A DNA stretch of 20,000 nucleotides from an uncultured virus (IMG/VR IMGVR_UViG_3300038393_001696) (IMGVR_UViG_3300038393_001696); one strand, 5' to 3'. Positions 1 to 18,388 are shown, counted from the first letter of the stretch. The notes: a model not told the origin generated them from the sequence alone. Made by a program: numbers and translations.

Positions 1-578
1 GTGTGGCCGACGAGCTGCTGCCGCGCGCGTTCCCGGTCAAGAGCGCCCTGCACGTCTGGATCGACCCGGCCAACGGCTGGCTCGCGATCGACACCGCCAA
101 CGCAGCCAGTGCGGACGGCGTGGTCAAGCTGCTGCTCAAGGCGGTCGACCGGATGCCGCTCGCATCGCTGCGCGTGGCGCATGCGCCGGTCGCGGTGATG
201 ACCGGCTGGCTCGACGCGGATGAAGCCCCGGCAGGTTTCTCGATCGACCAGGACGCCCAGCTGCGCGCCGCCGGCGAGAGTCGCGCCGAGGTCGGCTACC
301 GGCGGCACACCCTCGAACCGGACGACATGCGCCGCCACATCGCCGCCGGCAAGCAGTGCACGCGGCTGGCGCTGACCTGGAACAGCCGCATCTCGTTCGT
401 GCTGACCGAGACGCTGGCGCTGCGCGCGATCCGCCCGCTCGACGTGCTCAAGGAAGGCGCCGCGGCCGCGTACAACGACGACGAGCGCTTCGACAGCGAC
501 TTCGCGCTGATGGCCGGTGAGTATGCGCAGCTGCTGGCCGACCTGGCCGCAGCGCTGGGCGGCGAGGCAGCAACATGA
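1..578 (+). CDS. rdgC: Recombination-associated protein RdgC, phage-encoded (5'-truncated by window)
   Basis: Translation ELLPRAF...VWIDPANGWLAIDTANAASAD...MTGWL...PAGFSIDQDAQL...HIAAGKQCTRLALTWNSRISFVLTE...RFDSDFALM...LGGE matches the RdgC C-terminal half as I recall it; the frame is open from the window start. Confidence 0.9.
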   Translation, partial: VADELLPRAFPVKSALHVWIDPANGWLAIDTANAASADGVVKLLLKAVDRMPLASLRVAHAPVAVMTGWLDADEAPAGFSIDQDAQLRAAGESRAEVGYRRHTLEPDDMRRHIAAGKQCTRLALTWNSRISFVLTETLALRAIRPLDVLKEGAAAAYNDDERFDSDFALMAGEYAQLLADLAAALGGEAAT

Positions 579-793
579 GCGCGCTCGGCGGGCGCGCCGC
601 AGCGAACACCGGATTCCATTGCCCTGAATGCTACGCCAAGGGCGACCAACCGCACGCGTCGACCTGCTCGGCAGCCAAGGCGCCGGCGCCGGCGGTTATC
701 CCGCTCGGCATCTCCAATTACCAGCTCCCCGACGGTACGACGGGAAGCTCCTACACCAGCAGCACCAACCAACCACAACCAGGGAGAACCTCG

Positions 794-1570
794 ATGTCCT
801 TCGACACCGCCGAAGCAGCACCCGCCGCAGTGGACGCCACCGCTGCCGCACCGGCAGCCGCTGCCGTTGACCAGCACCTGTTCGTTACCGTCCCGGAAAC
901 CACGCTGCCGAACGGCACGGTGGTCCCGGCCTTCCAGGTCGGCCAGTACTACTGCTCGCAGGGCGCGGACGGCAAGCTCGCGATCAACGCGAGCAGCGAG
1001 CCGTGGGTCGAGATCAGCTACCACGCCGCGCGCCAGGCCTGCGCCGCCGCCGGCTACTCACTGCTGACCGAGCTGCAGGCGTTGGCGATTGCACACAACA
1101 TCGCCCAGCAGGGCGCGAACTGGAGCGGTGGACAGGTTGGCGTGGGCAACCTGCTGCAGGGCCTGCACCTCGACCCCGACGACGCCGACGAAGCCTACGC
1201 CGGCGACTACGTGCCAGCCGATCCGGCCGAGCGCCGCATGTTCGTGCTGTCGAACGGCCAGACCATCTGCGACGCGGCCGGCAATTTCTACGGCTGGGTC
1301 TTCGATGACGTCCAAGGCGACGAGAACGGTTTAGTGGCGCGCGCATTCGCTGCCGATTCGCCGTCGATCACCACGGCGCCATTCCCGTCGCTGGAGCGCG
1401 GCATGGGCTGGTATCCGAAGGCCGGCAGCGATTGGTCGGGCGCTGCGCTCCTCCGCGGCGGCTACTGGTGTTCGGACGGCGATGCCGGCGTGTTCGATCT
1501 CGACTACGGCTGGCCCGGCGACGCCTACGACTACGTGGGCTTCCGCTGCACCAAACCCATTGGTCTCTGA
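794..1570 (+). CDS. DGR target protein 1, C-type lectin / FGE-sulfatase-like fold with C-terminal variable region
   Basis: CLec/FGE motifs DAAGNFYGWV, LRGGYW, VGFRC; 3' end contains VR1, which aligns to TR. ATG 794 has SD AGGGAG at 781-786. An in-frame alternative start at 575 overlaps the rdgC stop and adds a CPEC..H..C segment. Confidence 0.88.
   Translation: MSFDTAEAAPAAVDATAAAPAAAAVDQHLFVTVPETTLPNGTVVPAFQVGQYYCSQGADGKLAINASSEPWVEISYHAARQACAAAGYSLLTELQALAIAHNIAQQGANWSGGQVGVGNLLQGLHLDPDDADEAYAGDYVPADPAERRMFVLSNGQTICDAAGNFYGWVFDDVQGDENGLVARAFAADSPSITTAPFPSLERGMGWYPKAGSDWSGAALLRGGYWCSDGDAGVFDLDYGWPGDAYDYVGFRCTKPIGL
1434..1548 (+). repeat. DGR variable repeat VR1
   Basis: 115-bp ungapped alignment to TR 3478-3592 with 14 mismatches, all at TR adenines (manual count). 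Confidence 0.95.
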
Positions 1571-1582
1571 TCCCTGGTCCCG

Positions 1583-1604
1583 GGTCGCCGCGTCAGCGGT
1601 GACC
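1583..1604 (+). promoter_or_regulatory. DGR target-recognition hairpin downstream of VR1/IMH
   Basis: GGTCGCCGC-GTCA-GCGGTGACC: 9-bp stem with one G-T pair and a 4-nt loop, starting 13 nt after the stop codon; duplicated after VR2 and absent after TR. Confidence 0.8.
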
Positions 1605-1640
1605 GATCCCGAGCCACCGACAAACGCGAGAACCGCCAAC

Positions 1641-2531
1641 ATGAAAATCGAACTCACCCAAGAGCACACCTTTACCGCCCGCGCTGGCGCCTACACGGTA
1701 CACGGCCTGCGCCGCGCCGACCAATGGGAAGGCCTGACCAAACTGGTGGACCTGTCCGAGCGCTTCCTGATCGTATCTGACAACGACGGAATCGTGGTCA
1801 AGGGCACGCCCGCGCTGCTGCGCGACCTGCGCCTGACCGCCAGCACCGACTTGTTCGTCACCGTGCCGGAAACTACGCTGCCCACCGGCCAAGTCGTGCC
1901 GTCGTTCCAGGTCGGCCAGTACCACTGTGGCAGCGACGGCGACAGCATCGCCATCCGTTCCGACTTGGTGCCGCTGGTACGCGTCAACTACCGCGACGCG
2001 AAAACGCGCTGCGTGGACGCCGGCTACCAGTTGATCACCGAACGGCAATGCCTGGCGATTGCCGTCGACATCGCCGGGCAGGACATCAACTGGACCGGCG
2101 GCAAGGTCGGGCACGGCGCGATCTACCAGGGCCTGCACCTCGGCACGGTCAGCGCTCCGCAGGCCGGCACCTACGAACCGGACGACAACGAACGCCGCTG
2201 GCACCAGCTGTCGAACGGTGCGCGCATCTACGACTTCGCCGGCAACATGTTCAGCTGGGTGTACGACGACGTGCAGGGCGACGCCGAAGGTCTGGTAAGC
2301 GCCGCGATCGAAAAGGACTCGCCGTCGCTCGCCAGCGCGCCCTACCCCAGCGAACAGAAGGGCATGGGCTACATCCCGCGCGGCCCGCTGAAGTGGTCGG
2401 GCCGTGCGCTCGTCCGCGGCGGCTGCTGGTTTTCGGACGACCGTGCCGGCGTGTTCAGTCTCGACTACGACTGGCCCGACTCCGCCAGCGTCTACGTGGG
2501 CTTCCGCTGCACCAAACCCATTGGTCTCTGA
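1641..2531 (+). CDS. DGR target protein 2, C-type lectin / FGE-sulfatase-like fold, paralog of target 1
   Basis: Shares LFVTVPETTLP.G.VVP.FQVGQY.C, QGLHL, LSNG..I.D.AGN...WV.DDVQGD..GLV and the identical C-terminus VGFRCTKPIGL with target 1. Start taken at ATG 1641 (MKIELTQ); the longer ORF-track start lies inside VR1. Confidence 0.9.
   Translation: MKIELTQEHTFTARAGAYTVHGLRRADQWEGLTKLVDLSERFLIVSDNDGIVVKGTPALLRDLRLTASTDLFVTVPETTLPTGQVVPSFQVGQYHCGSDGDSIAIRSDLVPLVRVNYRDAKTRCVDAGYQLITERQCLAIAVDIAGQDINWTGGKVGHGAIYQGLHLGTVSAPQAGTYEPDDNERRWHQLSNGARIYDFAGNMFSWVYDDVQGDAEGLVSAAIEKDSPSLASAPYPSEQKGMGYIPRGPLKWSGRALVRGGCWFSDDRAGVFSLDYDWPDSASVYVGFRCTKPIGL
2395..2509 (+). repeat. DGR variable repeat VR2
   Basis: 115-bp ungapped alignment to TR with 15 mismatches, all at TR adenines (manual count). 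Confidence 0.95.
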
Positions 2532-2543
2532 TCACTGGTCCCG

Positions 2544-2565
2544 GGTCGCCGCGCCAGCGGTGACC
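2544..2565 (+). promoter_or_regulatory. DGR target-recognition hairpin downstream of VR2/IMH
   Basis: GGTCGCCGC-GCCA-GCGGTGACC; same stem as 1583-1604, differing only in the loop. Confidence 0.8.
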
Positions 2566-2599
2566 TCCCTTAACCAGAACAATAAATAAGAAGACAACC

Positions 2600-3454
2600 A
2601 TGCAACAGGCAGCAACCCAGCACCCCACCGACGCCGAACTGAGCGGGTTCGGTATCAGCAAATTCAGGGGCATCGACATCGGCCTCGGCCAGGCCGACCC
2701 GATGACCGGCATCGCCGCCAAGCTCGAGCAGCAGTACCCGCACCACTTGGTCCTGATCCAGTGCGGCAAGTTCCTGCACGGCTTCGACCGCACCGCGCAC
2801 GCGCTCAGCACGCTGAAGGGCTACCAGCTCAAGCTGGTCGGCACGACCGATGAACCGCACCTACGCGTCGGCTTCCCGGCCGGTAACTTCAAAAGCCGGC
2901 TGTGGTCGATGGTCGAGGAATTCGGCATCCCTTACGTGGTCGCGCTGGGGACGCTGGCGCAGGGTCATACCGTCTACGTGTCGGACCAGTCCAGCCAGCA
3001 GTCGACGGTGCTCGCCGCGGTGACTCCCGAGATCGTCGCCCAGGTGATCGCGGACCTGCGCCAGCGCGGCAACCTCAACAAGGCGGCAGCGCGGCAGGTG
3101 CTGGCCAACCCGGACAGCGCCGGTTTCAAGCTGAAGCAGCAGGCCCAGGCGCTCGACCTGCAACTGCTGCAGGACATCATCAAGATGCCGCGCGACCTGC
3201 GCGTCACCTATGGCGAGAACCTGCGCGCCTGCATGGCGCGGCTGATGCGCGCCGTGTTCGCCTTTGGTCTGGACGTGAACCGGGCCGCATCGCTGCACGC
3301 GATCTCGGCCGACGTCGACCTGCTCAAGCACTATCTGGCGCAGGCTCCGCGGCTAAGCAAGCTCAAGTTCGCTTTCGAACACAGAGTGGGCTTAGCCGTT
3401 GAGCTTGGGCGCCTGGTCGGCGGCCTGATCCGCGCCGAGAAGGTGGCAGCATGA
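2600..3454 (+). CDS. avd: DGR accessory protein: N-terminal MutS domain I-like region fused to C-terminal Avd four-helix bundle
   Basis: N-half KLEQQYPHHLVLIQCGKFLHGFDRTAHALSTLKGYQL...HLRVGFP resembles MutS-I (K..yPd.lllfr.GdFYE.f..DA..as..L.i.L...maGfP). C-half MPRDLRVTYGENLR...LHAISADVDLLKHYL...ELGRLVGGLIR resembles Avd. Gene sits immediately upstream of TR. Confidence 0.8.
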   Translation: MQQAATQHPTDAELSGFGISKFRGIDIGLGQADPMTGIAAKLEQQYPHHLVLIQCGKFLHGFDRTAHALSTLKGYQLKLVGTTDEPHLRVGFPAGNFKSRLWSMVEEFGIPYVVALGTLAQGHTVYVSDQSSQQSTVLAAVTPEIVAQVIADLRQRGNLNKAAARQVLANPDSAGFKLKQQAQALDLQLLQDIIKMPRDLRVTYGENLRACMARLMRAVFAFGLDVNRAASLHAISADVDLLKHYLAQAPRLSKLKFAFEHRVGLAVELGRLVGGLIRAEKVAA

Positions 3455-3477
3455 TCAACGAAGGGGGATTTCTGGAA

Positions 3478-3592
3478 GGTCGAGCAATGCGCTCATCCGC
3501 GGCGGCTACTGGTATTCGGACGACAATGCCGGCGTGTTCAATCTCGACAACGACTGGCCCGACAACGCCAACGACAACGTGGGCTTCCGCTG
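3478..3592 (+). ncRNA. DGR template repeat (TR)
   Basis: Adenine-rich copy of VR1/VR2 (AAC/AAT/GAC triplets; 24 A) between avd and RT. It diverges from the VRs immediately after ...GTGGGCTTCCGCTG (IMH* vs IMH). Confidence 0.95.
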
Positions 3593-3699
3593 ACCCAACA
3601 ATTACATGCCTGGACGCCGAGCCGCGCGCTCGCGGGAGGTCAATTCTTGGTCGAAATCCTCTTGGGGAGTCCCCGCAAGCAGGGCCGAAGGTAGCACCC

Positions 3700-4803
3700 A
3701 TGGCCACACCGAGGACCGCGCCGGGGCCCGCGGGCGCCGGCGCGGAACGAGGCGACGCCAGCCTGTTCGTGCGCCTGACCAGCCTCGACAACCTGCACGC
3801 CTGCTGGCTGCAGGCCAAGCGCAGCAAGTCGCAAAGCCCGCGCGTGCAGCGCTTCGAGGCGGACCCGCTGCACTACCTGTTGATGATCCAGCAGCGCCTG
3901 CGCGCGCGCCAGTTTTCGTTCGGCCCGTACAAGGCGTTCACTGTGCGCGAGAAGAAGTTCCGCCAGGTGATCGACGCGCCGATGAAGGACCGCGTGGTGC
4001 ACTGGATGCTGTACCGGTACCTGCTGCCGCTCTGGCAACCGCGCTTCATCCACGACACCTACGGCAACCTGCCCGGGCGCGGCACCCACGCCGCCGTCGA
4101 TCGGCTGGCCACGTTTTGCCGCGGCGCGAACGCGCGCTGGGCACTGCAACTGGACATCTCGAAGTACTTCTACTCCGTCGGCCACGCTGTGCTGAAGGCG
4201 CGCGCGCTGCGCTACGTCGGCGACCACGACCTGCGCCAGCTGATCGCGGCACTGGTCGATTCGTTCCGTACCGACGACAGCTACGACCACCTGTTCGCCG
4301 CTGACTCGGCGTATCGGCTCACGCCGGCCAAGGGCATGCCGATCGGGAACCTCTCCAGCCAGTTGTTTGCCAACATCTTCCTGGCCGACTTCGACAGCTG
4401 GGTCAAGGGCGCGCTGCGCGTCAAGCGCTACATCCGCTACGTCGACGACCTGGTGGTCGTCGGCGAGACGCAGGCCGAGCTGCTGGATATCAAGGACGCG
4501 CTGGTTGCGCGGCTGGCCGCAGACGGCCTGACTGTCCACCCGCGCAAGGCGCGCATCGCGCCGATCGCCGCCGGCGTACCGTTCCTCGGCTACGTCGTGT
4601 GGCCGCGCCACGTCTCGGCCGGCGCCTACGTGCGCGGGCGCTACCTGCGCCGCCTGCGCGAGCACGAATCCGGCGGCTACGACCGCAGCGACACGCTGCG
4701 CGCCTATCAGGCGATGCTGGCCCATACCGGCCCCACCAATGTCCGCAGGGGCGTTCGCCACCCTGCTTTGCAACCACACCAAACCAAGGGAGAACTGCTT
4801 TGA
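3700..4803 (+). CDS. DGR reverse transcriptase
   Basis: RT motifs KDRVVH, GRGTHAAV, LQLDISKYFYSV, GMPIGNLSSQLFANIFL (DGR-type SQ), YIRYVDDL and GVPFLGY; no maturase/endonuclease extension. Start placed at ATG 3700, downstream of TR; the ORF track extends the frame to 3451. Confidence 0.93.
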   Translation: MATPRTAPGPAGAGAERGDASLFVRLTSLDNLHACWLQAKRSKSQSPRVQRFEADPLHYLLMIQQRLRARQFSFGPYKAFTVREKKFRQVIDAPMKDRVVHWMLYRYLLPLWQPRFIHDTYGNLPGRGTHAAVDRLATFCRGANARWALQLDISKYFYSVGHAVLKARALRYVGDHDLRQLIAALVDSFRTDDSYDHLFAADSAYRLTPAKGMPIGNLSSQLFANIFLADFDSWVKGALRVKRYIRYVDDLVVVGETQAELLDIKDALVARLAADGLTVHPRKARIAPIAAGVPFLGYVVWPRHVSAGAYVRGRYLRRLREHESGGYDRSDTLRAYQAMLAHTGPTNVRRGVRHPALQPHQTKGELL

Positions 4804-6266
4804 ATCTGTCACAAGAACATGGAACGGGCGACGCCGCCCTGGCCGTAACCGCGACCGACGTACCGGGCCGGCGCACCAAGGCGCAAATCATTGCGCTGGC
4901 CAACGCCGTTGGCATCGACACGGACACCGAAGGCGATATCTGGGGTAGCACGAACGGCGCGCTGCTGAAGTTCGCTGATGCGCTGCTCGACGCCCACCTC
5001 GCGCACCGGTCTCAGGACGCTCCAATGGCGAATGAGCGGACAGACTTTGAGCGATGGGCCTTGGATGAGCAAGTTGCCTATCGCGACGTCCAGCACGGCC
5101 TTTGCTTCTACGATGCAGGGTCTGGCGCACACCAATGGATCGGATGGCAAGCACGCGCCAGATTCGGGGCTCCAGCTCAGGGCGCCGAAGCGCAAGCAGA
5201 GCGCGCGGCAGTGCCGGAAGGGTGGAAGCTCGCCTTGCACGCTGCTGTGTCGGCTATCTACTTCGATGACTCGTCTGACTACAAATCGGCGCTCGGCGCG
5301 GTTGTGAGCAATCTGGACGCGAACCTCGCTGGCGAGTTGCTCGGCAGCCCGAAGGCCGCATACGACAAGGCATGCGCACTACTCGCCGCCCCTGTTCCAG
5401 CAGTCGCGCAGGAAGACGAACGGCAAGCTGGCCGCGACCTGAACAACACTCCCTGCCCGAAGTGCGGCCGGCGCACTGGTGTTCACACGCAGGAGGATTG
5501 GGAAGAGTGCTTTGGCGTCAAGACGCCTCCAGATGAGGAAGAGGAGGGCGAGCAGGTCGCGCCCGATGATGGCATGTTCTCGTCGGACTGGAAAGACGGC
5601 TACTCAGTCGGGTTCCAGGCCGCGAAAAAGCTATCCTCTCCTGCCGCCGCCAGCTCCGAGAGCGTCGATACGCCGGAATTGCGCCGCTTGCTCTACACGT
5701 TGTCGTGCACAACCGGCGCGGAGAACAAGGAAATCGAGCGTCGCATCATCGCCCACATCGAATCCCTGATCGCTGCGCGGGTAGCTGGAGCACAGGCCGC
5801 GCCTACCGACCTGTCGAAGCGCTTGCGTGCCTACGCCGAGGGTAGCCCGAGATTTCAACAAACGCTGCTACCAACGCGCGACCTGCTCGCAGCCTGCGAC
5901 GAGATCGACCGCTACTACGGCGGCATGATGGCTTGGAAGCAGACGGCCGAGAAGAAGGATCGCGACTGGTACGCCGAGCGCATGGACCGGATCAACGACC
6001 GCATCGCCTTCCGAAATTCCGAAGCACAGGCCGCGCCTGATGCGGTGCGGGATGGCCTTGAAGCACTGCTCATCGAGCGCCGGATCGCCATCACGCCGGA
6101 ATACGAAGGCGGCTTCCATGCTGCGATTTACGGCGAAGAGGAAGCGCCCCAGTCCAAAGGATTTGGCAAAAAGCCGAGTGAAGCTGTCAGCAATGCGATC
6201 AATAGCACCCCGGCAGGCGACAGCCAGCCCGCTGTGGGCGCAGCAGGTCAGGAAGGCGGTGCGTGA
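4800..6266 (+). CDS. Hypothetical mosaic phage early protein
   Basis: Long ORF with likely TTG start at 4800 overlapping the RT stop (TTGA) and SD AAGGGAG at 4786-4792. Short domains are joined by Ala/Pro linkers; one CPKC motif. Start uncertain. Confidence 0.65.
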   Translation: MNLSQEHGTGDAALAVTATDVPGRRTKAQIIALANAVGIDTDTEGDIWGSTNGALLKFADALLDAHLAHRSQDAPMANERTDFERWALDEQVAYRDVQHGLCFYDAGSGAHQWIGWQARARFGAPAQGAEAQAERAAVPEGWKLALHAAVSAIYFDDSSDYKSALGAVVSNLDANLAGELLGSPKAAYDKACALLAAPVPAVAQEDERQAGRDLNNTPCPKCGRRTGVHTQEDWEECFGVKTPPDEEEEGEQVAPDDGMFSSDWKDGYSVGFQAAKKLSSPAAASSESVDTPELRRLLYTLSCTTGAENKEIERRIIAHIESLIAARVAGAQAAPTDLSKRLRAYAEGSPRFQQTLLPTRDLLAACDEIDRYYGGMMAWKQTAEKKDRDWYAERMDRINDRIAFRNSEAQAAPDAVRDGLEALLIERRIAITPEYEGGFHAAIYGEEEAPQSKGFGKKPSEAVSNAINSTPAGDSQPAVGAAGQEGGA

Positions 6267-6655
6267 TGGGGCACGCGACTGAACTTGAGCGCGTCAAAGC
6301 CGCCAAGGTGACGCACCGTTGCTCCTGGTGCGCCGAGAAGATTAATGTTGGCTCCCCATACTCCCGATACCGCTACTTCGACGGTGGCGATGCCGGGACG
6401 GTAAAGCTGCACCCAGAGTGCCACGAAGTGCTGGATGAAACCGTGCGCGAGGAGGGCTACGACTACGAGTTTTACCCGGGCGAAAACCCGCGCGGCTGTA
6501 ATTGCGGACACAGCCATGGCTGCCCGACATGCGAGGAGCGGAAGCACAAAGCCCCCGCCCAGCAGGCAGACGACAGCCAGAAAGCCACAACGAAAGAGAA
6601 ATTCGACTGCTGCGACGGCGAGTGCCCCGTATGCATGAGCGAAGGCCAAATCTAA
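6263..6655 (+). CDS. Cys/His-rich hypothetical phage protein (putative zinc-binding)
   Basis: HRCSWC...HPECH, CNCGHSHGCPTC and CCDGECPVC motifs; start overlaps the upstream stop (GTGA). Confidence 0.65.
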   Translation: MMGHATELERVKAAKVTHRCSWCAEKINVGSPYSRYRYFDGGDAGTVKLHPECHEVLDETVREEGYDYEFYPGENPRGCNCGHSHGCPTCEERKHKAPAQQADDSQKATTKEKFDCCDGECPVCMSEGQI

Positions 6656-6663
6656 GGACAACC

Positions 6664-6921
6664 ATGACCGACAAGACCACCATGACCAACCCGCAAAAGA
6701 ATATTGATGAAGCGATGGTGAGAGAGGCGCTGAAAGCTGTCGCGATCATCCCACGGCTGAAAGTCGAAGAGCGCGGGCCGTACCTGAGTGCGCTCCTGGC
6801 GATTTCGTACAAGCTTCTGCGCACGGTCGAGGGCGACGAATTCGTGCGCGGCTGGCTGGAATCCGCCCTGCACGAAGTGACGACCGAGGCACCGGACGTT
6901 GCCATCAACGAACTGCACTGA
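6664..6921 (+). CDS. Hypothetical phage protein
   Basis: SD TAAGGA just before ATG 6664; fills the gap in a tightly packed + strand operon. Confidence 0.6.
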   Translation: MTDKTTMTNPQKNIDEAMVREALKAVAIIPRLKVEERGPYLSALLAISYKLLRTVEGDEFVRGWLESALHEVTTEAPDVAINELH

Positions 6922-6931
6922 GGACTGACAC

Positions 6932-8155
6932 ATGGCCGACCAGACCACCACCACCGCAGGCATCGACCTGGACAAGCTGGAAGCACTGGATGCTAATCCG
7001 CTCTACGAAGCGTTGAAGCTCGCGCTTGGAAACCTCGCTCTGCACGACCACAAAGAGGCAAGCCGCATCGGTGCCATGGTCCGTCAGGCGATGACGTGCG
7101 TGAGCGAACAGGCGGACGAGCGGGCGTTGTTTGAGGCTTGGTATCGCAAGCGCTACAGCGTGCCTGCTTGGGCACCCCTGAATTTCCCGGATGTGCCGAA
7201 TGCATGGGAAGTATGGCAGGCCCGCGCCGCCCTCACCCAGAAAGTCGCGCCCGAAGCACCGGTCGCACCATGTGTTCCGGGTGGTGTGGCGAAGCTACTT
7301 CGCCATCTTCGAGAGGAGGGAATCTTGAGTGAAGGCCAGATAACCAAGGCGCTTGGCGTTGACCGCCTGACGTGCCGTGAGATTTTGGATGAAGTTGCCA
7401 TTACCGCACCGGCCACCCAGCAGGCAGGAGCGGCAGATTGCCACGCAAGCTGCGGCTATATCGGTGCCGAGTGCGACTTCCCGCAGTGCAAAAGCCGCGC
7501 CCCAGTCCCTGCGGCCACCACAGCAAGCTCCCTGCCCCTCATCACCGATGCCGACCTGCCAGCGACACTCGAGCCTGGCTTCTACCTTGTGGGAGTCACG
7601 CTCAAGGGCGAACGCACCCCAGCACCAGCCACCACGGCAAGCGCGAGCGGGGTAATCGGCGCGGGCGATCCAGAGGCGTTCTTTTGGGAGTTCTGCGAGA
7701 AGCAGGGCTACCCCAGCGATAGCGATATGGACGATGCGCTGCGTGCTTCATTTTATGAAGGAATCCGCTATTGCGCAGTGCATACCCCGGCCCCAACACC
7801 CAGCCGTGAGGCTGCGCCGCTGGACGACGCTGTAATCCGCAAGGTGCTGCTCAAGCATCTTGGCTGGCTTGGGTCGGCAGGGTGGGGCGATGATATCAAA
7901 GCCATCTGTGCCGACCTCCGCGCCGCGCTCGCCCAGCAGGGCGCAGGACACGCAGCGCAGGCTGGGGCGGATGCCGAGCGAGAGGTGACCTGGCGCAAGG
8001 CACGCGATGACGCGTGCGCCCGCAGCGAGAAGCCGCCGTTGGGGCCGCTGCCGAGCGAAAGTTACCGCGCATTGTGGGAATCCATCAACGGCCCCGGCAG
8101 CTGGGACGCCAACCCATGGGTGTGGGTGGTCGAATTCAAGCGGGTGCAGCCATGA
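6932..8155 (+). CDS. Hypothetical mosaic phage early protein
   Basis: SD GAGGA; 407 aa with Ala/Pro/Thr linkers. Ends in [28 protein letters not shown], a C-terminus I recognise from ASCH-like phage proteins. Confidence 0.7.
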
Positions 8156-8293
8156 ACCCGCTCATCGCCCTGTGGCTGTGGTGGCTGATGTGGCAGCCGC
8201 AGGATGAGAGGAAGGACCAGGCATGAGCCGCCAGCACCTGCGGCGCGCGGCCGAATCGGCGAAGCAGCCACGAAGTGATGGGAGAAATGAGAA

Positions 8294-8521
8294 GTGAGCG
8301 ACATGTTTCTCAGCGGTGAGGAGCTAAGCAGCATGACCAACCGGGTCCAGCATAAAGCCCAGGCCAAGATGTTACGATCCATGGGCGTGGAGTTTCGCAC
8401 CCGCGCCGACGGTACGCTGGCGGTGCTCCGCGCCCACGTCGACAAGGTATTCGGCAACGCCGCCGAGTCGGTGCCGAAGAAGAAATCGTTTCAACCGAAC
8501 TGGGATGGTGTCAATGCCTAG
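8294..8521 (+). CDS. DUF4224-family putative excisionase / recombination directionality factor
   Basis: MFLSGEELSSMTNRVQHKAQAKMLRSMGVEFRTRADGTLAVLR...PNW pattern; overlaps the integrase start. GTG 8294 or ATG 8303. Confidence 0.8.
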   Translation: MSDMFLSGEELSSMTNRVQHKAQAKMLRSMGVEFRTRADGTLAVLRAHVDKVFGNAAESVPKKKSFQPNWDGVNA

Positions 8522-9581
8522 GAAGCGCAACAAGGAAAATGCGGGCTTGCCGGCGCGCTGGAAGGCCGAGCACGGCGCCTACTACTACCAGGTGCCGCCG
8601 GGGCTGGAAGACCGCTGGGACGGGAAGAAGAAATTCCGGCTCGGTGCAACACTGCCGGAGGCCTATGCGGAATGGGCGCGCCGGCTGCAGGACGTCGACG
8701 GGGCAAAGACCATCGGCGCCCTGCTCGACCGCTATGCGCTGGAGGTCGTGCCAACCAAGAACGTGCGCACTCAGGTCGAGAACAACCGCGCGATCCGCAA
8801 CCTGCGCGCCGTGTTCGGCGACGCCCCGCTCACATGGCTCAAGCCGCAGCACGTCTACCAGTACGTCGACCGCCGCAAGGCGACCCCGGTGGCGGCGCAT
8901 CGCGCGGTCGACGTCCTGTCGCATGCGTACACCAAGGCGGTCGAGTGGGGCTACGTCGACCGCCACCCATTCAAGGGCGAGGTGCGCCTGCAGGGCGAAA
9001 AACCGCGCGACCGCTACGTCGAGGACTGGGAACTGGTCGAGTGCCTGGCGCTCGACAGCAAGCGCAAGAAAGGCAGCGTGCTGATGATCCAGGCCTACAT
9101 CCGGATCAAACTGCTGACCGGCCTGCGCCGCGGCGACCTGCTGCGCCTGAAGACCGCCGACCTGCAGGACGACGACGGCATCCACGTCACGCCGCGCAAG
9201 ACCGAGCACAGCACAGGCAAGCGCCAGATCATCGAATGGTCGCCCGAGCTGCGCGAGGCGATCGCGACGGCCAAGGAGGCCAGGCCGGTCGACATCGCGC
9301 CGTGGCTGTTTTGCACGCGTAAGGGCGAGGGCTACATCGACGAGGAGAAAGGCACCGCCAGCGGTTGGGACTCGATGTGGCAGCGCTTCATGGAACGGGT
9401 ATTGAAGGAAACCAAGGTCACCGAGCGCTTCACCGAGCACGACCTGCGTGCCAAATGCGCAAGCGATGCCGAGTCGCTCGAGCATGCTCGCGCCTTACTG
9501 GCGCATGCAGACAGCCAGTTGACGCAGCGGGTTTACCGACGCCGCCCGGAGCGTGTAAAGCCCGGAAAACTCAGCATTTGA
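8514..9581 (+). CDS. int: Tyrosine recombinase / phage integrase
   Basis: Catalytic motifs TGLRRGD (R), RKT (K), HDLR (HxxR), LLAH (H), RVYRR (Y); N-terminal MPRKR..LP arm-binding-type region; lies between xis-like gene and att site. Confidence 0.93.
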   Translation: MPRKRNKENAGLPARWKAEHGAYYYQVPPGLEDRWDGKKKFRLGATLPEAYAEWARRLQDVDGAKTIGALLDRYALEVVPTKNVRTQVENNRAIRNLRAVFGDAPLTWLKPQHVYQYVDRRKATPVAAHRAVDVLSHAYTKAVEWGYVDRHPFKGEVRLQGEKPRDRYVEDWELVECLALDSKRKKGSVLMIQAYIRIKLLTGLRRGDLLRLKTADLQDDDGIHVTPRKTEHSTGKRQIIEWSPELREAIATAKEARPVDIAPWLFCTRKGEGYIDEEKGTASGWDSMWQRFMERVLKETKVTERFTEHDLRAKCASDAESLEHARALLAHADSQLTQRVYRRRPERVKPGKLSI

Positions 9582-9594
9582 TTCCGGCAAAGCG

Positions 9595-9975
9595 CTATCC
9601 GAAGTGGCGTGAGAGGAAGTGGTGTTGACCCGCCTTAGTCAAAACACTTTCACCGAGCGCATTGCTATTAAGCTGGTAATAACGCTGGCAAAAGTCAATC
9701 ACTGCCGCCCCAAGTGACTCTTTAGGTGCCACTTTGGCGCACATCCAGTCCAAGCGTGAACCATCGAAATTAAGTCGCATGAACCGACGACGAGAGTCGC
9801 CGTTGCATGCCAGCAAGTCAAGGACCACCACCCCTTGGAAACGTTTTCGGACAAGATCGCGCTCCACCGCCTCCATGTATTCATCGGGCCGCGTACTATC
9901 GAGCGAAAAGCAGACGAGCTCGTTGCTCGTCCCCGGGGCCTTCGCTAGCGCATAGTGCTTTTTCGATATAATCAT
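9595..9975 (-). CDS. rnlB: RnlB/LsoB-family antitoxin
   Basis: 126 aa; G.VVLDLLACNG...RF.....DG and ..L.ESVL pattern like E. coli RnlB (FDLLCANG..NRF); start overlaps the toxin stop (ATGA). Confidence 0.8.
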   Translation of the reverse strand: MIISKKHYALAKAPGTSNELVCFSLDSTRPDEYMEAVERDLVRKRFQGVVVLDLLACNGDSRRRFMRLNFDGSRLDWMCAKVAPKESLGAAVIDFCQRYYQLNSNALGESVLTKAGQHHFLSRHFG

Positions 9976-11018
9976 GGGCTCATTGCTGATGCAGTTTTTT
10001 CGATATTGTTCAAAACCTCGTGGATGATTCCAACGGCAGCTGCTTTATCGTCGAGTATGCGCGACATTTCAACGTTGGCCTCGACGTGGAACAAGCTGTG
10101 ACGGTGCTTATGATACAGGTTGTAGGATTTTTCCACAGCGGCAACAGTGTGGGGGCAATCCATCTTTTGCCGGACAGATGGTTTAAGCGTGCCGCCATCG
10201 ACTAAGTAGTCGCCAAAGCCGACCGTGTTTCGCACTGAGTAGCCATGTCGCGCCATGATGACCTTCATGTACGCTTCCAGTCCCTTAAGGGCGGGAAACG
10301 CGAAGGCCGAATAATCGGGTAGCTGCACCGCCAGCTTTGCCAGGGCAAGCGAAGGCGCAATAATAGCAGCACCGGCATCGCCTAATAGACCCATAGCACT
10401 CGGAATCCACTGCCGGAGCTCCTCAAGAAGGTCGGTGGACGTAACACCTTCAACATGAAAAGACTTCAGCTGAGCGTCAACGACCTGCTTCTTATCGGGC
10501 GTCACTTCACATAATATCTGAGCGACAATCCCGTAGACCTCTCTGGCCTTACCTTGCATCAAGAATTTGCCAGTATTGTACAGGTGCAACACAACTTCAT
10601 CGCCAATGCCTTTTTTGACGCGAAATCGTTGGCCGTGCTCGAGCGGCTCCTCGCCCACCTCGAACTTCCAGTCATGCTTGAGATGCTCAATCAGAAACCG
10701 AAAATCTTCCACGCCCAGCTTTGCAAGGACAAGTGGGCGGGGTTCATATTCGGTCCTTAGACATCCGGCCGCGATGACCTCTGCCGCCTTATATGACAGG
10801 TGCTGATTCGCGCCAACCTTATAGTGCAGCGTTGTCGTGCCGTCGACCTTGTGAAAAATCTGCAGCGTAGCGGGCTGCTGACCGACCGCCTCGACTTTGT
10901 ATTCGACAAACTTCTCTTTCGTAGTCGGCCCCAGAACTGCGACGCCAGCCAGTCCGGAGCGCAGTACGTCATCGATACGTTCTTTATCGAGAAAAATGCC
11001 TTTGAAATTGTTCGTCAT
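9972..11018 (-). CDS. rnlA: RnlA/LsoA-family HEPN endoribonuclease toxin
   Basis: 348 aa; DGTTTL, YNTGKFLMQGK, LPDYSAFAFPALKGLEAYMK and HEPN RHSLFH (Rx4H) motifs typical of RnlA/LsoA. Confidence 0.85.
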   Translation of the reverse strand: MTNNFKGIFLDKERIDDVLRSGLAGVAVLGPTTKEKFVEYKVEAVGQQPATLQIFHKVDGTTTLHYKVGANQHLSYKAAEVIAAGCLRTEYEPRPLVLAKLGVEDFRFLIEHLKHDWKFEVGEEPLEHGQRFRVKKGIGDEVVLHLYNTGKFLMQGKAREVYGIVAQILCEVTPDKKQVVDAQLKSFHVEGVTSTDLLEELRQWIPSAMGLLGDAGAAIIAPSLALAKLAVQLPDYSAFAFPALKGLEAYMKVIMARHGYSVRNTVGFGDYLVDGGTLKPSVRQKMDCPHTVAAVEKSYNLYHKHRHSLFHVEANVEMSRILDDKAAAVGIIHEVLNNIEKTASAMSP

Positions 11019-11755: not shown

Positions 11756-12700
11756 TCACCCTGAACCCACCACCCAATAGCGCTTGATCACGGGATGCCG
11801 CAGGGTTCCGCCGTGCGTCCATTCCGTGAACGCAACCCGTGCGTGCAGCAGCGGCCGGACCCAATACACGCCCCTCTCTTGTCCAGTCGCGCCGGGGACC
11901 GATGGCGGCGCTGGGATATGGCTGAACGCGGCGAGCAATTCGCGCCGCTGGCCGTCGCTCAGGCCTGAGCCGACCGAGCCGACATAGCGCAGCCCTTCTT
12001 CCCCGGCACACATCGCTAGCAGCAGGGATCCGACGCCCACGCGCGACCGGGTGTACCCAACGATCACGAATTCGTCGACCAGGCCGCACTTAAGCTTAAT
12101 CCAGGCGTGCGAGCGGCGCGACACGTATGGCGCGTCCTTGCGCTTGCCGACGATCCCCTCGAGGCCGATGTCGCATGCGGCACGCAACATCTCGGCCGGG
12201 TCGCCGGCCAGCGGTGCACTGAACTGGACGACGCGCTGAGGCACGTTCGGCAGCACCAGCGAGAGCAGCCGGCGGCGTTCGTCAAGCGGGCAGGCGCGCA
12301 GGTCGTGGCCCGCCAGCCAGGGGCAGTCGAACAGGTAGTAGGTGATGCGCTCGCTTCGGCGCGCGTCGATCGACTGCTGGAGCAGCCCGAAGTCTGGCAG
12401 CCCGCGGTCGTTCAGCACGACGATCTCGCCGTCATAAAAGCCGCTCGGCAAGCAGAGCCTAGCCAGCGAACGGCGCAAGCACTCGAGATCGGCAGTCCAG
12501 TCGTGGCCGTTGCGGGTAAACAGCCGGATGCCGTTGCCAGCCACGCGGGCGAGCATGCGGTAGCCATCGAGCTTGATTTCCCAGACCCACTCGTCGGGCG
12601 TCGCCGGCGCGGCGTGTGCGAGCGTTACCAGCTGCGGCGCGAGGCGGGTCGGTAACGGCGCGGCGACGGCGGACGAAGGCATGGACGGGACGCGGGGCAT
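11756..12700 (-). CDS. ATP-dependent DNA ligase (stand-alone LigD ligase domain)
   Basis: Motif I EIKLDGYR; DGEIV, YYLFD, GLEGIVGKR..APYVSRRSHAWIKLK; OB-fold YVGSVGSG and FTEWT..GTLRHPV. Confidence 0.9.
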   Translation of the reverse strand: MPRVPSMPSSAVAAPLPTRLAPQLVTLAHAAPATPDEWVWEIKLDGYRMLARVAGNGIRLFTRNGHDWTADLECLRRSLARLCLPSGFYDGEIVVLNDRGLPDFGLLQQSIDARRSERITYYLFDCPWLAGHDLRACPLDERRRLLSLVLPNVPQRVVQFSAPLAGDPAEMLRAACDIGLEGIVGKRKDAPYVSRRSHAWIKLKCGLVDEFVIVGYTRSRVGVGSLLLAMCAGEEGLRYVGSVGSGLSDGQRRELLAAFSHIPAPPSVPGATGQERGVYWVRPLLHARVAFTEWTHGGTLRHPVIKRYWVVGSG

Positions 12701-12778
12701 GTTCGCTCCTGATCAGGCCCAAGCGTACTCCTTTCGCCGTTCGTTTTTGGCGTTCTACGAAACCGCCATGTGATCGCC

Positions 12779-13093
12779 TCAGTCGGCCTTCCCGCACTGC
12801 TTTCGCTCGACCTTGTCCTTCGCCTTGGCGTCGGCGCGGGTCTGCCATTGCAGGTTGGGCAGGTCGTCGAGCGCCAAGCGCTCGGCCTCGGTCTTTGCGC
12901 AGGCCAAGGCAATCTTGTGGTCGACCACATAACCGGCACAAATCCCAGAGGTGCGGCCGGTGGCCGGGCATGGGACGGTGGCACGGAAAAGCCGGATGAT
13001 TTTAGGGTTGCGCTTGAGCCTCCCGAAGTCATCTCTGGCCGGCGCCTGCGCGTGGGCGAGGACCGGCAACAGGAGCAAGACAAGTAGCTTCAT
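12779..13093 (-). CDS. Signal-peptide-bearing HNH-like small protein
   Basis: MKLLVLLLLPVLAHA signal peptide; PCPATG...C.GYVVDH.I.L.C....D...NLQWQT is HNH-like. Confidence 0.7.
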   Translation of the reverse strand: MKLLVLLLLPVLAHAQAPARDDFGRLKRNPKIIRLFRATVPCPATGRTSGICAGYVVDHKIALACAKTEAERLALDDLPNLQWQTRADAKAKDKVERKQCGKAD

Positions 13094-13234
13094 GCGCGCA
13101 TTCTAGAAGCCCGTCCCGGCGCCCCTTTTGCGAACACGCAGTTCGCTTGACCTGCCGCCGAGCTCGCCTTGACGGTTAACAAGTTGGCGTAAACACAAGC
13201 ATGCGAGGATGCCTCATCACATTACGGAGGCAAC

Positions 13235-13726
13235 ATGGCAGCAGATTTCTACCTGCAGATCGAAGGCATCAAGGGCGAGTCGTCGGACTCGAAGCACGCC
13301 GGCTGGATCGAATGCATGTCGGTCAACTGGGATATCCGGCAACCAAAATCGGCCACGGCTTCGACCGGCGGTGGTCACACCGCTGAGCGCGCCGAGCTCA
13401 GCGACATCAGCATAGCCAAGCTGGTTGACCTGTCCTCGCCCATCCTGGCGCAGCATTGCGCGATGGGGAAGACGATCCCGAAGGCGAAGCTGGAAATGCA
13501 ACGCGCTGACGGGCAGGGGCAGCCGATAAAGTATTTCGAGGTCGAGCTCGAGAACGTACTAATCTCGCACATCGCGCCGAGCTTCGACGGCGGTGGGCAG
13601 CCAATGGAGAATTTGGGCTTGAAGTTCTCGAAGGTACGCTGGCGCTACACGCAGCAAAAGGTGGGCGGCGGCGCCAGCGGCAACACGGCCGGTGGCTGGG
13701 ATCTGGCCACGAACAGGTTTGCATGA
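13235..13726 (+). CDS. hcp: Type VI secretion tube protein Hcp
   Basis: DFYLQIEGIKGES.DSKH.GWIE, SDISIAKLVDLSSPIL, YFEVELENVLIS, ENLGLKFSKVRWRYTQQ, GWDLATN; SD GGAGG. Confidence 0.95.
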   Translation: MAADFYLQIEGIKGESSDSKHAGWIECMSVNWDIRQPKSATASTGGGHTAERAELSDISIAKLVDLSSPILAQHCAMGKTIPKAKLEMQRADGQGQPIKYFEVELENVLISHIAPSFDGGGQPMENLGLKFSKVRWRYTQQKVGGGASGNTAGGWDLATNRFA

Positions 13727-14076
13727 TGCGCGCGCTCATTCTTTTGGCGCTCGCGCTGCCGGCTTACGCCGCGCCGGTCGGGACCCATCCATTCCCGTGG
13801 ATGACCGGCGAGCAGCTACTGCGCAAGCTGGACCGACCGGCGAGCCAGATCGACGCTGCGGCGACATCAGCCTACCTGCAGGGCGTGATGGACGCCACCG
13901 CTGACCGTGAATGGTGCTACAGCGCGACCAAACCCGGTACCAACCAGGTGCAGCCGGTGCTGACGGACAAGCTGCGCGCGCTGCCACCGGCGCAGGTGCG
14001 CCAGAGCGCGGCGGTGCTGGCGGTGCAGGCGTGGCGAGAGAAGTGGCCTTGCACTGCGGGGTGCTGCCATGCATAG
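13723..14076 (+). CDS. Rap1a/Tai-family T6SS amidase immunity protein (periplasmic)
   Basis: Signal peptide; TGEQLL...AYLQGVMDA...WC...AAVLAVQAWREKWPC pattern; overlaps both hcp and the effector gene. Confidence 0.8.
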   Translation: MMRALILLALALPAYAAPVGTHPFPWMTGEQLLRKLDRPASQIDAAATSAYLQGVMDATADREWCYSATKPGTNQVQPVLTDKLRALPPAQVRQSAAVLAVQAWREKWPCTAGCCHA

Positions 14077-14545
14077 ACCACTCTATGCTGTCCTGCGAAG
14101 CAAGTATCCCGACAGGCGCTCCGTCAGCGCCGAGGAAATCTACCGGTGGATCGGCTACCCGCCCGAGTACGCGAGCGACGCGCGCTGGGCGAATACCTGC
14201 GCGGTCCGGATGAGCCTCGCACTAGTGCGCTGCGGGGTGCCGGTGCCGGGACGGCTGCGCGTGCTGGCCGGCGAGTGCAAGGGCAAGCTGCTCGAGCCGG
14301 GGCAGGCGAACCTTTCGCACATGCTGGTGCGCCTGTGGGGCGCGCCGGAAAAGTACCAAGGTGGCCCGGCGGCGATTAAGGGCATCGGCAGCCGGCGCGG
14401 CGTGATCAGCTTCTACCGCCTCTGGAACCCGAGGGACCCGCAAGGGCATATCGACATGGTGGCACCGTGGGGTATCAACGACCTGGCATGTGAGGAGGAC
14501 TGCTACTGGCTGTCGTCGGAGGTGTGGTTCTGGCCGCTGAAGTAG
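14069..14545 (+). CDS. tae4: Tae4-family T6SS peptidoglycan amidase effector
   Basis: Catalytic NTCAVRMSLAL (Cys) and GHID (His); GVISF and C-terminal EVWFWPLK. Confidence 0.88.
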   Translation: MHRPLYAVLRSKYPDRRSVSAEEIYRWIGYPPEYASDARWANTCAVRMSLALVRCGVPVPGRLRVLAGECKGKLLEPGQANLSHMLVRLWGAPEKYQGGPAAIKGIGSRRGVISFYRLWNPRDPQGHIDMVAPWGINDLACEEDCYWLSSEVWFWPLK

Positions 14546-16161: not shown

Positions 16162-16719
16162 TCACTGCGCGTCGGTCGCGGCCTTCACGGCGCCGTAGGT
16201 GGTGATGCAGGCGCGCAGTCCGACGAGGGAATCGTCCCGGGTCTGCCGCAGCCATTCAAGATCGCTTGCAACTCGAGGCTCGAGATCGACGGTGCGGCCG
16301 CCGCCTGGTGAACCCAGTCCGGCAGCGCCGGCACCTTCACCTTGTCCAGGACGAGCAGCCGCGCAGGTGGCGGCGATGGCGACTGACATCCGGCGACGAC
16401 CAGCAGCAAGGTCAGACTGCAGAGTAGCCGATTTGGCTTGTTCATGGGATAGCTCCGTGTACAGGTCAGAGAGGTCGGCGAGCGTCGCGTCGAGCTTGTC
16501 CTGCGTGATCTTGACGCGCTCATTCATCTGCGCCAACTGCGCTTTGGCGCGCCGGTCGTTCTCGGCATCGATCGCATCGCGGCGCGCCGACTCCTGTGCG
16601 ACGCCGACTTGGATCAGGTGCGCGCGATATGAAAGCGCGGCCGCCCCAGACAGGATGCACAGCGCGGCGACCGCGAGCCATCGCGGCACGCCGAGGCGAG
16701 TGAGCAAGGCGGCGATCAT
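16162..16719 (-). CDS. Rz-like inner-membrane spanin
   Basis: N-terminal TM segment, coiled-coil body, position directly after endolysin, embedded Rz1. Confidence 0.82.
   Translation of the reverse strand: MIAALLTRLGVPRWLAVAALCILSGAAALSYRAHLIQVGVAQESARRDAIDAENDRRAKAQLAQMNERVKITQDKLDATLADLSDLYTELSHEQAKSATLQSDLAAGRRRMSVAIAATCAAARPGQGEGAGAAGLGSPGGGRTVDLEPRVASDLEWLRQTRDDSLVGLRACITTYGAVKAATDAQ
16185..16445 (-). CDS. Rz1-like outer-membrane lipoprotein spanin (embedded in Rz)
   Basis: MNKPNRLLCSLTLLLVVAG/C lipobox followed by Pro-rich sequence, in an alternate frame inside Rz. Confidence 0.8.
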   Translation of the reverse strand: MNKPNRLLCSLTLLLVVAGCQSPSPPPARLLVLDKVKVPALPDWVHQAAAAPSISSLELQAILNGCGRPGTIPSSDCAPASPPTAP

Positions 16720-17210
16720 GTGCGCAGCCCCTGCAGACACATCGCGCGTTCGCGCTGGCGGCGGCGAGTTAGGCCGGCGACCTCCTTGCCGCCGACCTTA
16801 TTCCAAAGCAGCAGCGCATCGCAGCCGCCGCGGTCGTCCCCAGCGCTGGTCTTCCTGGCCATGCTCGAGCTGCAGAACGCCGTCACGCCGATGTTGTAGG
16901 CTGCGTCGACGAAGGCCACCTTCTGGCCGTCGGTCAGGCGCTGCCACGGCAGGCACGGAGCGATACCCTCGGCGTGGCGCTCAAGGTCGCGATCAGTCTG
17001 CGCATCGCACTCCGCCGGCGTGTATGTCTTCCCGGCCTGCGCGTGCTCGGTGGCTCCGTCGCAGTAGGTCAGCACGCCGCCGATGTCGCGGTAGGTCTTC
17101 AGCACCCTGCCCTCCTGCGCCGGCGTGAACGCCAGCAGCGCGGCGGCGGCAACGGCGCCGACAACGGCGGCAAGGCCGCGCTTGGGGATGCCCGGCTTGT
17201 CGGCGCTCAT
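16716..17210 (-). CDS. GH24 lysozyme, SAR-type endolysin
   Basis: Ala/Gly-rich N-terminal anchor; catalytic triad E-x8-D-x5-T (EGRVLKTYRDIGGVLT); AYNIG, GLTRRRQRE. Confidence 0.92.
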   Translation of the reverse strand: MSADKPGIPKRGLAAVVGAVAAAALLAFTPAQEGRVLKTYRDIGGVLTYCDGATEHAQAGKTYTPAECDAQTDRDLERHAEGIAPCLPWQRLTDGQKVAFVDAAYNIGVTAFCSSSMARKTSAGDDRGGCDALLLWNKVGGKEVAGLTRRRQRERAMCLQGLRT

Positions 17211-17419
17211 TTGTCGGCCTCCAGGTTCGCCAGCGTCGCGTCGCTCTCGCGCTGCTCGCGCCGGTCCTTCCGGACCATGTAGAGGACGTTGACCACGCAG
17301 GTCAGCAGCGCGGTGACGATGCCGACGACGACACCGATCTGGTTCAGGGTCAAGGAGGCGCCGATCGAGGCGACGCCGCCGGCCACGCTGGTCACTTCCG
17401 GCGCGCTCAGTTTGATCAT
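17207..17419 (-). CDS. Holin (possibly pinholin)
   Basis: 70 aa with hydrophobic segments and a charged C-terminus; stop overlaps the endolysin start. Confidence 0.8.
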   Translation of the reverse strand: MIKLSAPEVTSVAGGVASIGASLTLNQIGVVVGIVTALLTCVVNVLYMVRKDRREQRESDATLANLEADK

Positions 17420-17430
17420 GGATGGGCCTT

Positions 17431-18374: not shown

Positions 18375-18388
18375 ATTTCCCCCCTCTT

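Follow-up and report, generated by a model that had tools for sequence, protein, structure and literature searches.

The question raised by this locus is what a phage diversifies when its diversity-generating retroelement (DGR) lies apart from the genes of the virion. Phage DGRs have been read almost entirely through the tropism-switching model of phage BPP-1. This study focused on a 20,000-nt stretch of DNA from an uncultured virus, a temperate phage of soil bacteria (IMGVR_UViG_3300038393_001696; 'the window' hereafter), in which a complete DGR occupies positions 794-4803 and comprises two paralogous target genes (T1 and T2), an Avd-like accessory gene (avdL), a 115-nt template repeat (TR) and a reverse transcriptase (RT). 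The targets lie among early recombination and integration genes and not among tail genes, so the DGR probably varies something other than a host-attachment protein. A complete DGR at these coordinates had been claimed in an earlier note on this DNA, in the order target 1, target 2, avd, TR, RT, co-oriented between rdgC and xis/int, and both the element (repeats, RT, Avd-like gene, targets) and its order were borne out by repeat comparison and gene annotation. The features, including the variable repeats (VR1 and VR2), are as follows.

3..578, + strand: 3' part of rdgC (recombination-associated), truncated by the window start; PF04381 E 1.6e-64, phrog_724 E 5.8e-46
794..1570, + strand: target gene T1, 258 aa; PF03781 E 0.002, 18.3 bits, below cut-off; phrog_2889 E 6.5e-24
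1434..1548, + strand: VR1, 3' end of T1; 14 of 14 differences from TR at TR adenines
1583..1604, + strand: conserved hairpin GGTCGCCGC-N4-GCGGTGACC 3' of VR1; DNA fold, z -1.9
1641..2531, + strand: target gene T2, 296 aa; PF03781 E 8.5e-6, 26 bits, above the 23.3 cut-off
2395..2509, + strand: VR2, 3' end of T2; 15 of 15 differences from TR at TR adenines
2544..2565, + strand: conserved hairpin 3' of VR2; DNA fold, z -4.2, 0 of 200 shuffles as good
2600..3454, + strand: accessory gene avdL, 284 aa; bAvd E 1.6e-4, MutS_I E 0.006, phrog_3206 E 1.5e-5
3478..3592, + strand: TR, between avdL and the RT start; repeat comparison
3700..4803, + strand, frame open from 3451: DGR RT; RVT_1 E 1.9e-20, phrog_1423 E 9e-94
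8294..8521, + strand: xis-like gene; DUF4224 E 8e-13
8505..9581, + strand: tyrosine integrase; Phage_integrase E 3.3e-9, phrog_1 E 2e-38

A direct-repeat search of positions 1-6500 recovered a unit of ~172 nt three times (1433-1604, 2394-2565 and 3477-3648), within which an in-register core is shared by TR (3478-3592), VR1 (1434-1548) and VR2 (2395-2509). There are 24 adenines in the 115 nt of TR. VR1 differs from TR at 14 sites and VR2 at 15, all 29 of them at TR adenines, and the non-adenine positions of TR are identical in the VRs (91/91); the hypergeometric probability of such a restriction is 5.5e-12 for VR1 and 5.5e-13 for VR2. The TR adenines are confined to codon positions 1 and 2 in both target frames. 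The last ~115 nt of both targets have been overwritten by TR-derived, adenine-mutagenised cDNA. With TR adenines treated as wildcards, no fourth copy was found anywhere in the window. The hairpin starts ~35 nt past each VR and is missing after TR (z +0.26 there), and is a candidate target-recognition element, judged from DNA fold and not from a defined initiation of mutagenic homing (IMH) site. The RT translation shows IGNLSSQ and YVDD; the motifs [ILV]GxxxSQ and YxDD mark DGR RTs. Its open frame crosses TR, its match to phrog_1423 starts at residue 104, and the inferred start is M84 (3700). Adenine-specific TR-to-VR mutagenesis, the avd-TR-RT order, a VR at the 3' end of a C-type-lectin target and a hairpin after the VR are all shared with the DGR of BPP-1 (mtd-avd-TR-brt).

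The DGR is active in nature. Three relatives (L001, L002 and L003), with targets ~95% identical to those of the window, have a TR identical to that of the window and differ in VR1 and VR2, at A sites only; it is this combination of one TR with different VRs in near-identical genomes that indicates activity. Contigs from four soil and rhizosphere runs (X2, X3, X4 and X6) were also aligned to the window, a comparison that is uninformative on expression, strand and prophage ends. The X3 and X6 contigs covering 378-1563 showed 17 differences, the 16 listed ones all falling within 1442-1532, and the X4 and X6 contigs covering 1543-2524 showed 18, with contigs ending at the VR edges; contigs spanning avdL-TR-RT (2504-5425 or 2504-5671) showed none. 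The VR1 of L003 (9061-9175) is a mosaic, its 5' half being that of the L002 VR1 and its 3' half that of the window VR1, which could be due to partial retrohoming, to recombination between variants, or to an assembly chimera of a mixed population.

The placement of the cassette was followed in related viruses. Relatives of T2 are encoded at six viral loci. Probing with TR gave three copies, no more and no fewer, in each of G002, G003, G004 and G006 and none in G005, which means that there is no further VR in the tail genes of G002 (99% complete) or G003 (92% complete). The virion strand of G002 carries a tail-spike gene, a chaperone gene, genes for a 2014-aa protein (phrog_9880, an unnamed family) and for a 718-aa protein labelled 'endolysin' in PHROGs, followed by genes for tubular proteins and capsid, a portal-like gene, terminase and O/P-like replication genes; T1, T2, avdL, RT, xis and int are on the other strand. 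The virion module of G002 is shared with, and colinear to, that of BPP-1 (terL 61%, portal-like 61%, major capsid protein 48%, tubular B 54%); identity between the RT of G002 and Brt is only 30%. In the siphovirus G003 the tape measure has 1793 aa and the capsid is of a type unlike that of G002, and rdgC-T1-T2-avdL-RT lies in the arm opposite its virion genes. A podovirus resembling BPP-1 and a siphovirus whose virion module is unrelated to it carry one and the same cassette. The BPP-1 record shows another layout: mtd-bbp7-TR-brt comes immediately after the tail genes, at the end of the late operon, and no part of the DGR is found in the cI-to-int arm, the counterpart of the arm that carries the cassette here.

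A DGR-less relative was found in G005, a complete phage with direct terminal repeats and a G+C content of 42%. Its 230-aa T-like gene (L007, 10013-10705) lies between a gene for a Dda-like helicase and genes for an exonuclease, a Sak4-type single-strand annealing protein (SSAP), DNA polymerase and primase. No RT was detected in G005 by protein search or with PF00078, both G002 and G003 being positive, and no second copy of the VR-equivalent stretch was present.

A similar picture came from bacterial genomes. In a pattern scan 38 loci turned up, among them loci of Oxalobacteraceae, Rhodocyclales, Methylotenera and Gallionella, and tblastn with a 26-protein panel placed avdL in 22 of them, avdL together with RT in 19, and rdgC in 4. 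PHROGs annotation covered 14 of the 19 complete cassettes, those with long flanks being preferred, and 253 flanking open reading frames (ORFs) taken from our own ORF picker. There were no tail-category PHROGs matches among these 253 ORFs. Head and packaging genes were seen on the opposite strand only, ~6 kb or more upstream (a portal-like gene in L024, terS in L038, terL in L013). A CI-like repressor gene lies upstream on the strand of the cassette in 8 of the 14 (two by tblastn only), and an integrase gene downstream in 12, on the same strand in 8. Genes for RecT/Bet, RecE/YqaJ or another exonuclease are found in the cassette arm at half of the loci (7/14), and this arm also carries RusA, NinB, methyltransferase, ParB-like and HNH genes. 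Extra target genes often come right after the repressor block and before the recombination genes (L012, L016, L024, L029 and L042).

In G002, G003, L002 and all 14 annotated loci, the cassette lies in a CI-side arm ending in xis/int, apart from the virion genes; an Mtd-type target is encoded with, and co-oriented to, tail genes, which is the case in none of G002, G003 and the 14 loci. The arm of L002, G003 and the genome loci is co-oriented with the repressor gene, carries recombination genes and ends in xis-int, and in these three features it is like the early-left (PL) operon of lambda. In the window, the xis-like gene and the integrase gene form the distal end of the arm co-oriented with the cassette. 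The DGR family is spread among lambdoid temperate phages of Burkholderiales and Rhodocyclales. Conserved synteny beside rdgC, which the earlier note had thought worth surveying, did not prove to be a general feature: rdgC adjoins the cassette in the window and in L002, L005, L006, L012, L029, L042 and L047, but was found in only 4 of the 38 genome loci, and the idea that rdgC linkage is a rule was rejected.

How the arm might be expressed was approached through L002, the 95% relative, which extends the window lineage upstream. From the repressor block to int, TTGACT-17-TAATAT (7088-7116) is its sole promoter-like site on the + strand, ~1 kb before rdgC and flanked by two copies of AGTCAGACT; the divergent cro-side promoter has AGTCGGACT, the same motif as AGTCAGACT, beside it. 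The operator-like motif occurs 4 times against 0.18 expected. No + strand terminator-like site was seen between the promoter-like site and int, or from cI to int. Within the window, a consensus scan of 1-9700 gave no promoter-like site and no + strand terminator-like site, and no copy of the operator motif was found near the cassette. The L002 sites are consensus matches only, and as such fit a lambda-type OL/PL arrangement.

The targets themselves are small. The start of T1 at 794 was fixed by ortholog alignment and is preceded by a ribosome-binding site, GGGAGA. T1 has a low-complexity, Ala/Pro-rich N-terminus of ~28 aa and T2 a beta-rich N-terminal domain of ~70 aa, each followed by a C-type-lectin domain of the formylglycine-generating enzyme (FGE) type that ends in the VR; the two proteins are 51% identical. 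The earlier note had called for a structural comparison with Mtd and TvpA, and an AlphaFold2 (AF2) model of T2 (pLDDT 92.1) matched FGE chains (E 3e-8), TaqVP (5vf4, E 9e-7), PvdO and Mtd (1yu3, E 2e-5) in Foldseek. Its statement that neither target has an obvious signal peptide or transmembrane segment agrees with maximum 19-residue hydropathy values of 1.29 (T1) and 1.02 (T2) and the lack of a signal-like N-terminus, in a rough check below the standard of SignalP.

The N-terminal domain of T2 has 79% identity to that of the window in the podovirus G002 and 69% in the siphovirus G003. Modelled separately with AF2 (pLDDT 83), it gave a best Z of 3.7 and no meaningful fold match among 48,161 chains, and in the ESM Atlas it matched unnamed clusters only, with scores of 0.79 or less. 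Mtd is anchored to the tail fibre by N-terminal domains; T1 has only ~28 low-complexity residues at that end, and the domain of T2 could be an anchor. BPP-1 has one Mtd target, in contrast to the two or three FGE-type targets with little or no N-terminal part found here. At E<=1e-5, 692 proteins of 162-518 aa belong to the T-like family; at E<=1e-10 no fused homolog of greater length (519-2000 aa) was found, which is weak evidence. Among cultured phages, megablast with positions 1-9600 and tblastn with the T2 ORF found no match in 50,697 records.

TvpA, a target of the FGE type, is a lipoprotein. Targets of this type are known from cellular DGRs (TvpA, TaqVP), and like T1 and T2 they are short, FGE-like C-type lectins with a C-terminal VR, but the present ones are phage-borne, without a signal-like N-terminus, and set in a conserved phage-arm context (FGE-sulfatase-type targets are category 'b' of Wu et al. 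2018). Targets without export signals are also found in cyanobacterial and other cellular DGRs, where intracellular multidomain proteins are varied and roles in regulation or immunity have been proposed (PMC7517822, PMC10053308); those are large signalling or NTPase fusions, whereas T1 and T2 are small, stand-alone binders of a phage.

A solitary T-like gene is present at ~9.9-10.7 kb in each of nine loci of Massilia/Telluria chromosomes (L031, L032, L034-L037, L040, L041 and L048), with no avdL or RT within 10 kb of it. In 9 of 9 it follows the same genes of ~340 aa and ~620 aa, judged by ORF size, which Pfam identifies in L035 and L048 as SGNH/GDSL hydrolase and carbamoyltransferase genes; spoT follows in L035. 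A signal-like N-terminus is lacking here too, and the gene, perhaps a fixed cellular relative, could hint at the class of ligand.

The accessory protein has an Avd-like C-terminal part and a conserved N-terminal extension of ~170 aa with weak likeness to MutS domain I. For the window avdL, the matches to bAvd and to MutS_I both lie below the Pfam cut-off. Across 14 orthologs, which are 45-90% identical, bAvd was matched by 12 (best 9.3e-7) and MutS_I by 4 (best 9e-5), and phrog_3206, matched by avdL at E 1.5e-5, is annotated as 'Avd protein of DGR'. Neither a single-query nor a profile search of PDB sequences with avdL gave anything below E 0.09. The 284-aa protein differs from the Avd of BPP-1 in its extra N-terminal domain. 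Wu et al. 2018 described accessory genes of the MutS-like (MSL) type in 16 DGRs, including that of Legionella; in that survey MSL and avd stand as two genes within the same DGR, whereas avdL combines both likenesses in one protein. The N-terminal extension is a possible MSL. A DNA methyltransferase gene lies between avdL and RT in two loci (L021, 13062-14072; L038, 15643-17211), and in several others directly 3' of RT.

Weighing these comparisons of sequence and gene order, we lean slightly towards a role for T1 and T2 outside the virion. Under such a role, the arm would be transcribed from a repressor-controlled, PL-like early promoter, and synthesis of T1 and T2 would follow soon after infection or induction, with read-through in the lysogen possible. 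The proteins would stay in the cytoplasm and would act as small variable ligand binders instead of tail parts. Each progeny genome would carry its own pair of binder variants, expressed at the start of the next infection, and selection would favour variants that bind a variable intracellular protein of the host or of a rival phage, most likely a defence component. Within the non-virion reading our best guess is a binder for counter-defence or host takeover, since every genome would begin the next infection by expressing a variant of its own. The earlier note had argued for a non-tail DGR whose products act inside the cell, and part of this stands as observed: the DGR is complete and active, the cassette is outside the virion arm in all 14 annotated loci, near-complete relatives have no VR in their tail genes, and the cassette is common to unrelated virion modules. 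The intracellular counter-defence binder is what we infer beyond this. A fuller and much more tentative proposal is that the DGR forms an intracellular, genome-linked library of binders, in which hypervariable T1 and T2, made early, would neutralise variable proteins of defence systems or rival phages, and the cassette would be coupled to single-strand annealing recombination and to an Avd-fused MutS-like mismatch shield, as a natural counterpart of the engineered DGRec system.

Several points weigh against a function outside the virion. The Mtd protein of BPP-1, the phage DGR target whose function has been shown experimentally, is a virion protein, and surveys place viral DGR targets mostly among tail proteins (as stated in section 9 of PMC8144416 and in the relevant part of PMC11792537). 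Virion proteins also lack signal peptides, so that missing export signals cannot separate the readings. The N-terminal domain of T2 has no recognisable fold and could have an anchoring role. No PADLOC model matched T1, T2 or avdL. The promoter and operator of L002 lie outside the window, in a relative at 95%, and are matches at consensus level, and no RNA run was found to contain the sequence. Five of the 19 complete cassettes (L014, L015, L017, L025 and L033) lie outside the PHROGs annotation, and gene calls in the related loci depend on our own ORF picker.

The alternative that survives best, though we hold it to be doubtful, is that the position of the cassette reflects retrohoming and not the job of the targets. 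Recombination proteins (SSAP, exonuclease, RdgC) would help to integrate the cDNA, and host mismatch repair would be kept off A-site mismatches by the part of avdL that resembles MutS domain I; such an account is compatible with either function of the targets. An SSAP or exonuclease gene shares the arm in 7 of the 14 loci and lies between two targets in five (L012, L016, L020, L024 and L029), and rdgC adjoins the cassette in the window and seven related loci, but the other seven of the 14 show neither SSAP nor exonuclease, and L002 has no SSAP between its promoter-like site and rdgC. The arm is, moreover, the usual home of recombination and accessory genes in lambdoid phages, so that their co-location with the cassette may be chance. 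The MutS_I match is found in 4 of the 14 avdL orthologs, although that of the window falls below the Pfam cut-off. In E. coli, cDNA made by the BPP-1 RT and Avd entered targets only with CspRecT, in a mutL* background, according to the DGRec preprint, which calls the natural cDNA integration step of DGRs not understood (10.1101/2025.03.24.644984). The BPP-1 DGR itself, however, works from a late-operon site.

It is rather unlikely, in our view, that T1 and T2 associate with the virion as receptor-binding or decoration proteins, their genes lying outside the late operon and the DGR switching tropism as in BPP-1. The C-type-lectin fold is indeed common to the targets and Mtd (Foldseek 1yu3, E 2e-5), tail proteins predominate among viral DGR targets in the survey section already cited (PMC8144416), and the turnover of VRs between near-identical genomes fits selection by outside ligands. 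The fold of the T2 N-terminal domain is unmatched, and a circular map would put the cassette within a few kb of the end of the late genes, across int/attP. Against this, the cassette is on the strand and in the arm opposite the virion genes in all annotated relatives, and the same targets accompany podovirus and siphovirus modules with the N-terminal domain 69-79% conserved. T1 has no anchoring domain, the DGR-less homolog of G005 sits in a replication cluster, and fused, longer forms of the target were not found.

Least probable, we consider, is that T1 and T2 are made in the lysogen as protective variable binders of superinfecting-phage proteins, a DGR-based anticipatory defence. In its favour, the cassette is co-oriented with and downstream of a CI-like gene, L002 has no + strand terminator-like site from cI to int, defence-type cargo (RnlAB) is among the neighbours, and an immunity in which a DGR varies cytosolic proteins has been put forward (PMC10053308). 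Against it, the targets have no effector domain and match no PADLOC model, the promoter-like site that separates the cI block from the cassette has operator-like repeats and so points to repression in the lysogen, and the DGR-less homolog occurs in a phage (G005) without lysogeny genes in the half examined.

Returning to the preferred role outside the virion, the earlier note had also relied on a putative tail-fibre ORF at 18389-19438 of the window that lacks a VR. The wildcard scan of the whole window confirmed this lack, but as an argument it is weak alone because the ORF may belong to a different unit, and the claim that it proves a non-tail target was rejected, its ownership being uncertain. 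The VR-free tail genes of the relatives are the stronger argument, and ownership of the ORF does not affect the main one. Between the integrase gene and this ORF lie RnlAB, a DNA ligase gene and an Hcp-Rap1a-Tae4 set of the type VI secretion system (T6SS). The order int, Hcp, a 394-aa gene (440 aa in G003) and a tail protein gene is colinear with G003 across the contig ends. One possibility is that the window spans the junction of one phage in circular order, its cargo being RnlAB, the ligase and Hcp-Rap1a-Tae4; another is that it consists of two elements flanking a host island.

The remaining parts of the window can be described briefly. From RT to xis (4803-8155) there are three ORFs of unknown function, one of them a Cys-rich ORF of 130 aa (6263-6655), and the many short skips of metagenome contigs in this stretch indicate that it varies among strains. 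Directly after the integrase gene, at 9595-11018 (- strand), is an RnlB/RnlA toxin-antitoxin pair of low G+C. The RnlAB stretch is an insertion/deletion polymorphism: 9339-10672 was uncovered in X2 and X4, and was bridged to int in one contig in X3 and X6. The stretch 11756-14545 holds a gene for an ATP-dependent DNA ligase (- strand), then Hcp, a Rap1a immunity gene and a Tae4 amidase effector gene, before the lysis and tail genes. Hcp also comes after int in G002 and after the lysis genes in G003, so the ligase/T6SS set may be phage cargo and not host DNA. The right end (16716-20000, - strand) is colinear with that of G003 and carries a tail protein gene (phrog_6278), the low-G+C, fibre-like ORF 18389-19438 and holin-like ORFs; such a G+C content in the fibre ORF suggests that a receptor-binding module was exchanged recently.

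Searches of the main text of papers gave no description of a DGR placed in the early arm of a lambdoid phage, which does not prove that none exists. Cultured carriers exist, such as the prophages of Pseudoduganella rivuli (FT92W) and Duganella guangzhouensis (FT80W), which are loci L042 and L047, and those of Undibacterium arcticum and Solimicrobium silvestre, so the question is open to testing. What is described here is a family of phage DGRs that lies in the early, lysogeny-proximal arm whatever the type of virion and diversifies small proteins without export signals. The link to recombination genes and the MutS-like domain may be relevant to how the cDNA is integrated during retrohoming. 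Should T1 and T2 be intracellular in action, the uses of targeted hypermutation would extend beyond adsorption to counter-defence or host takeover, and the binders would be natural, compact scaffolds for the selection of intracellular ligands.

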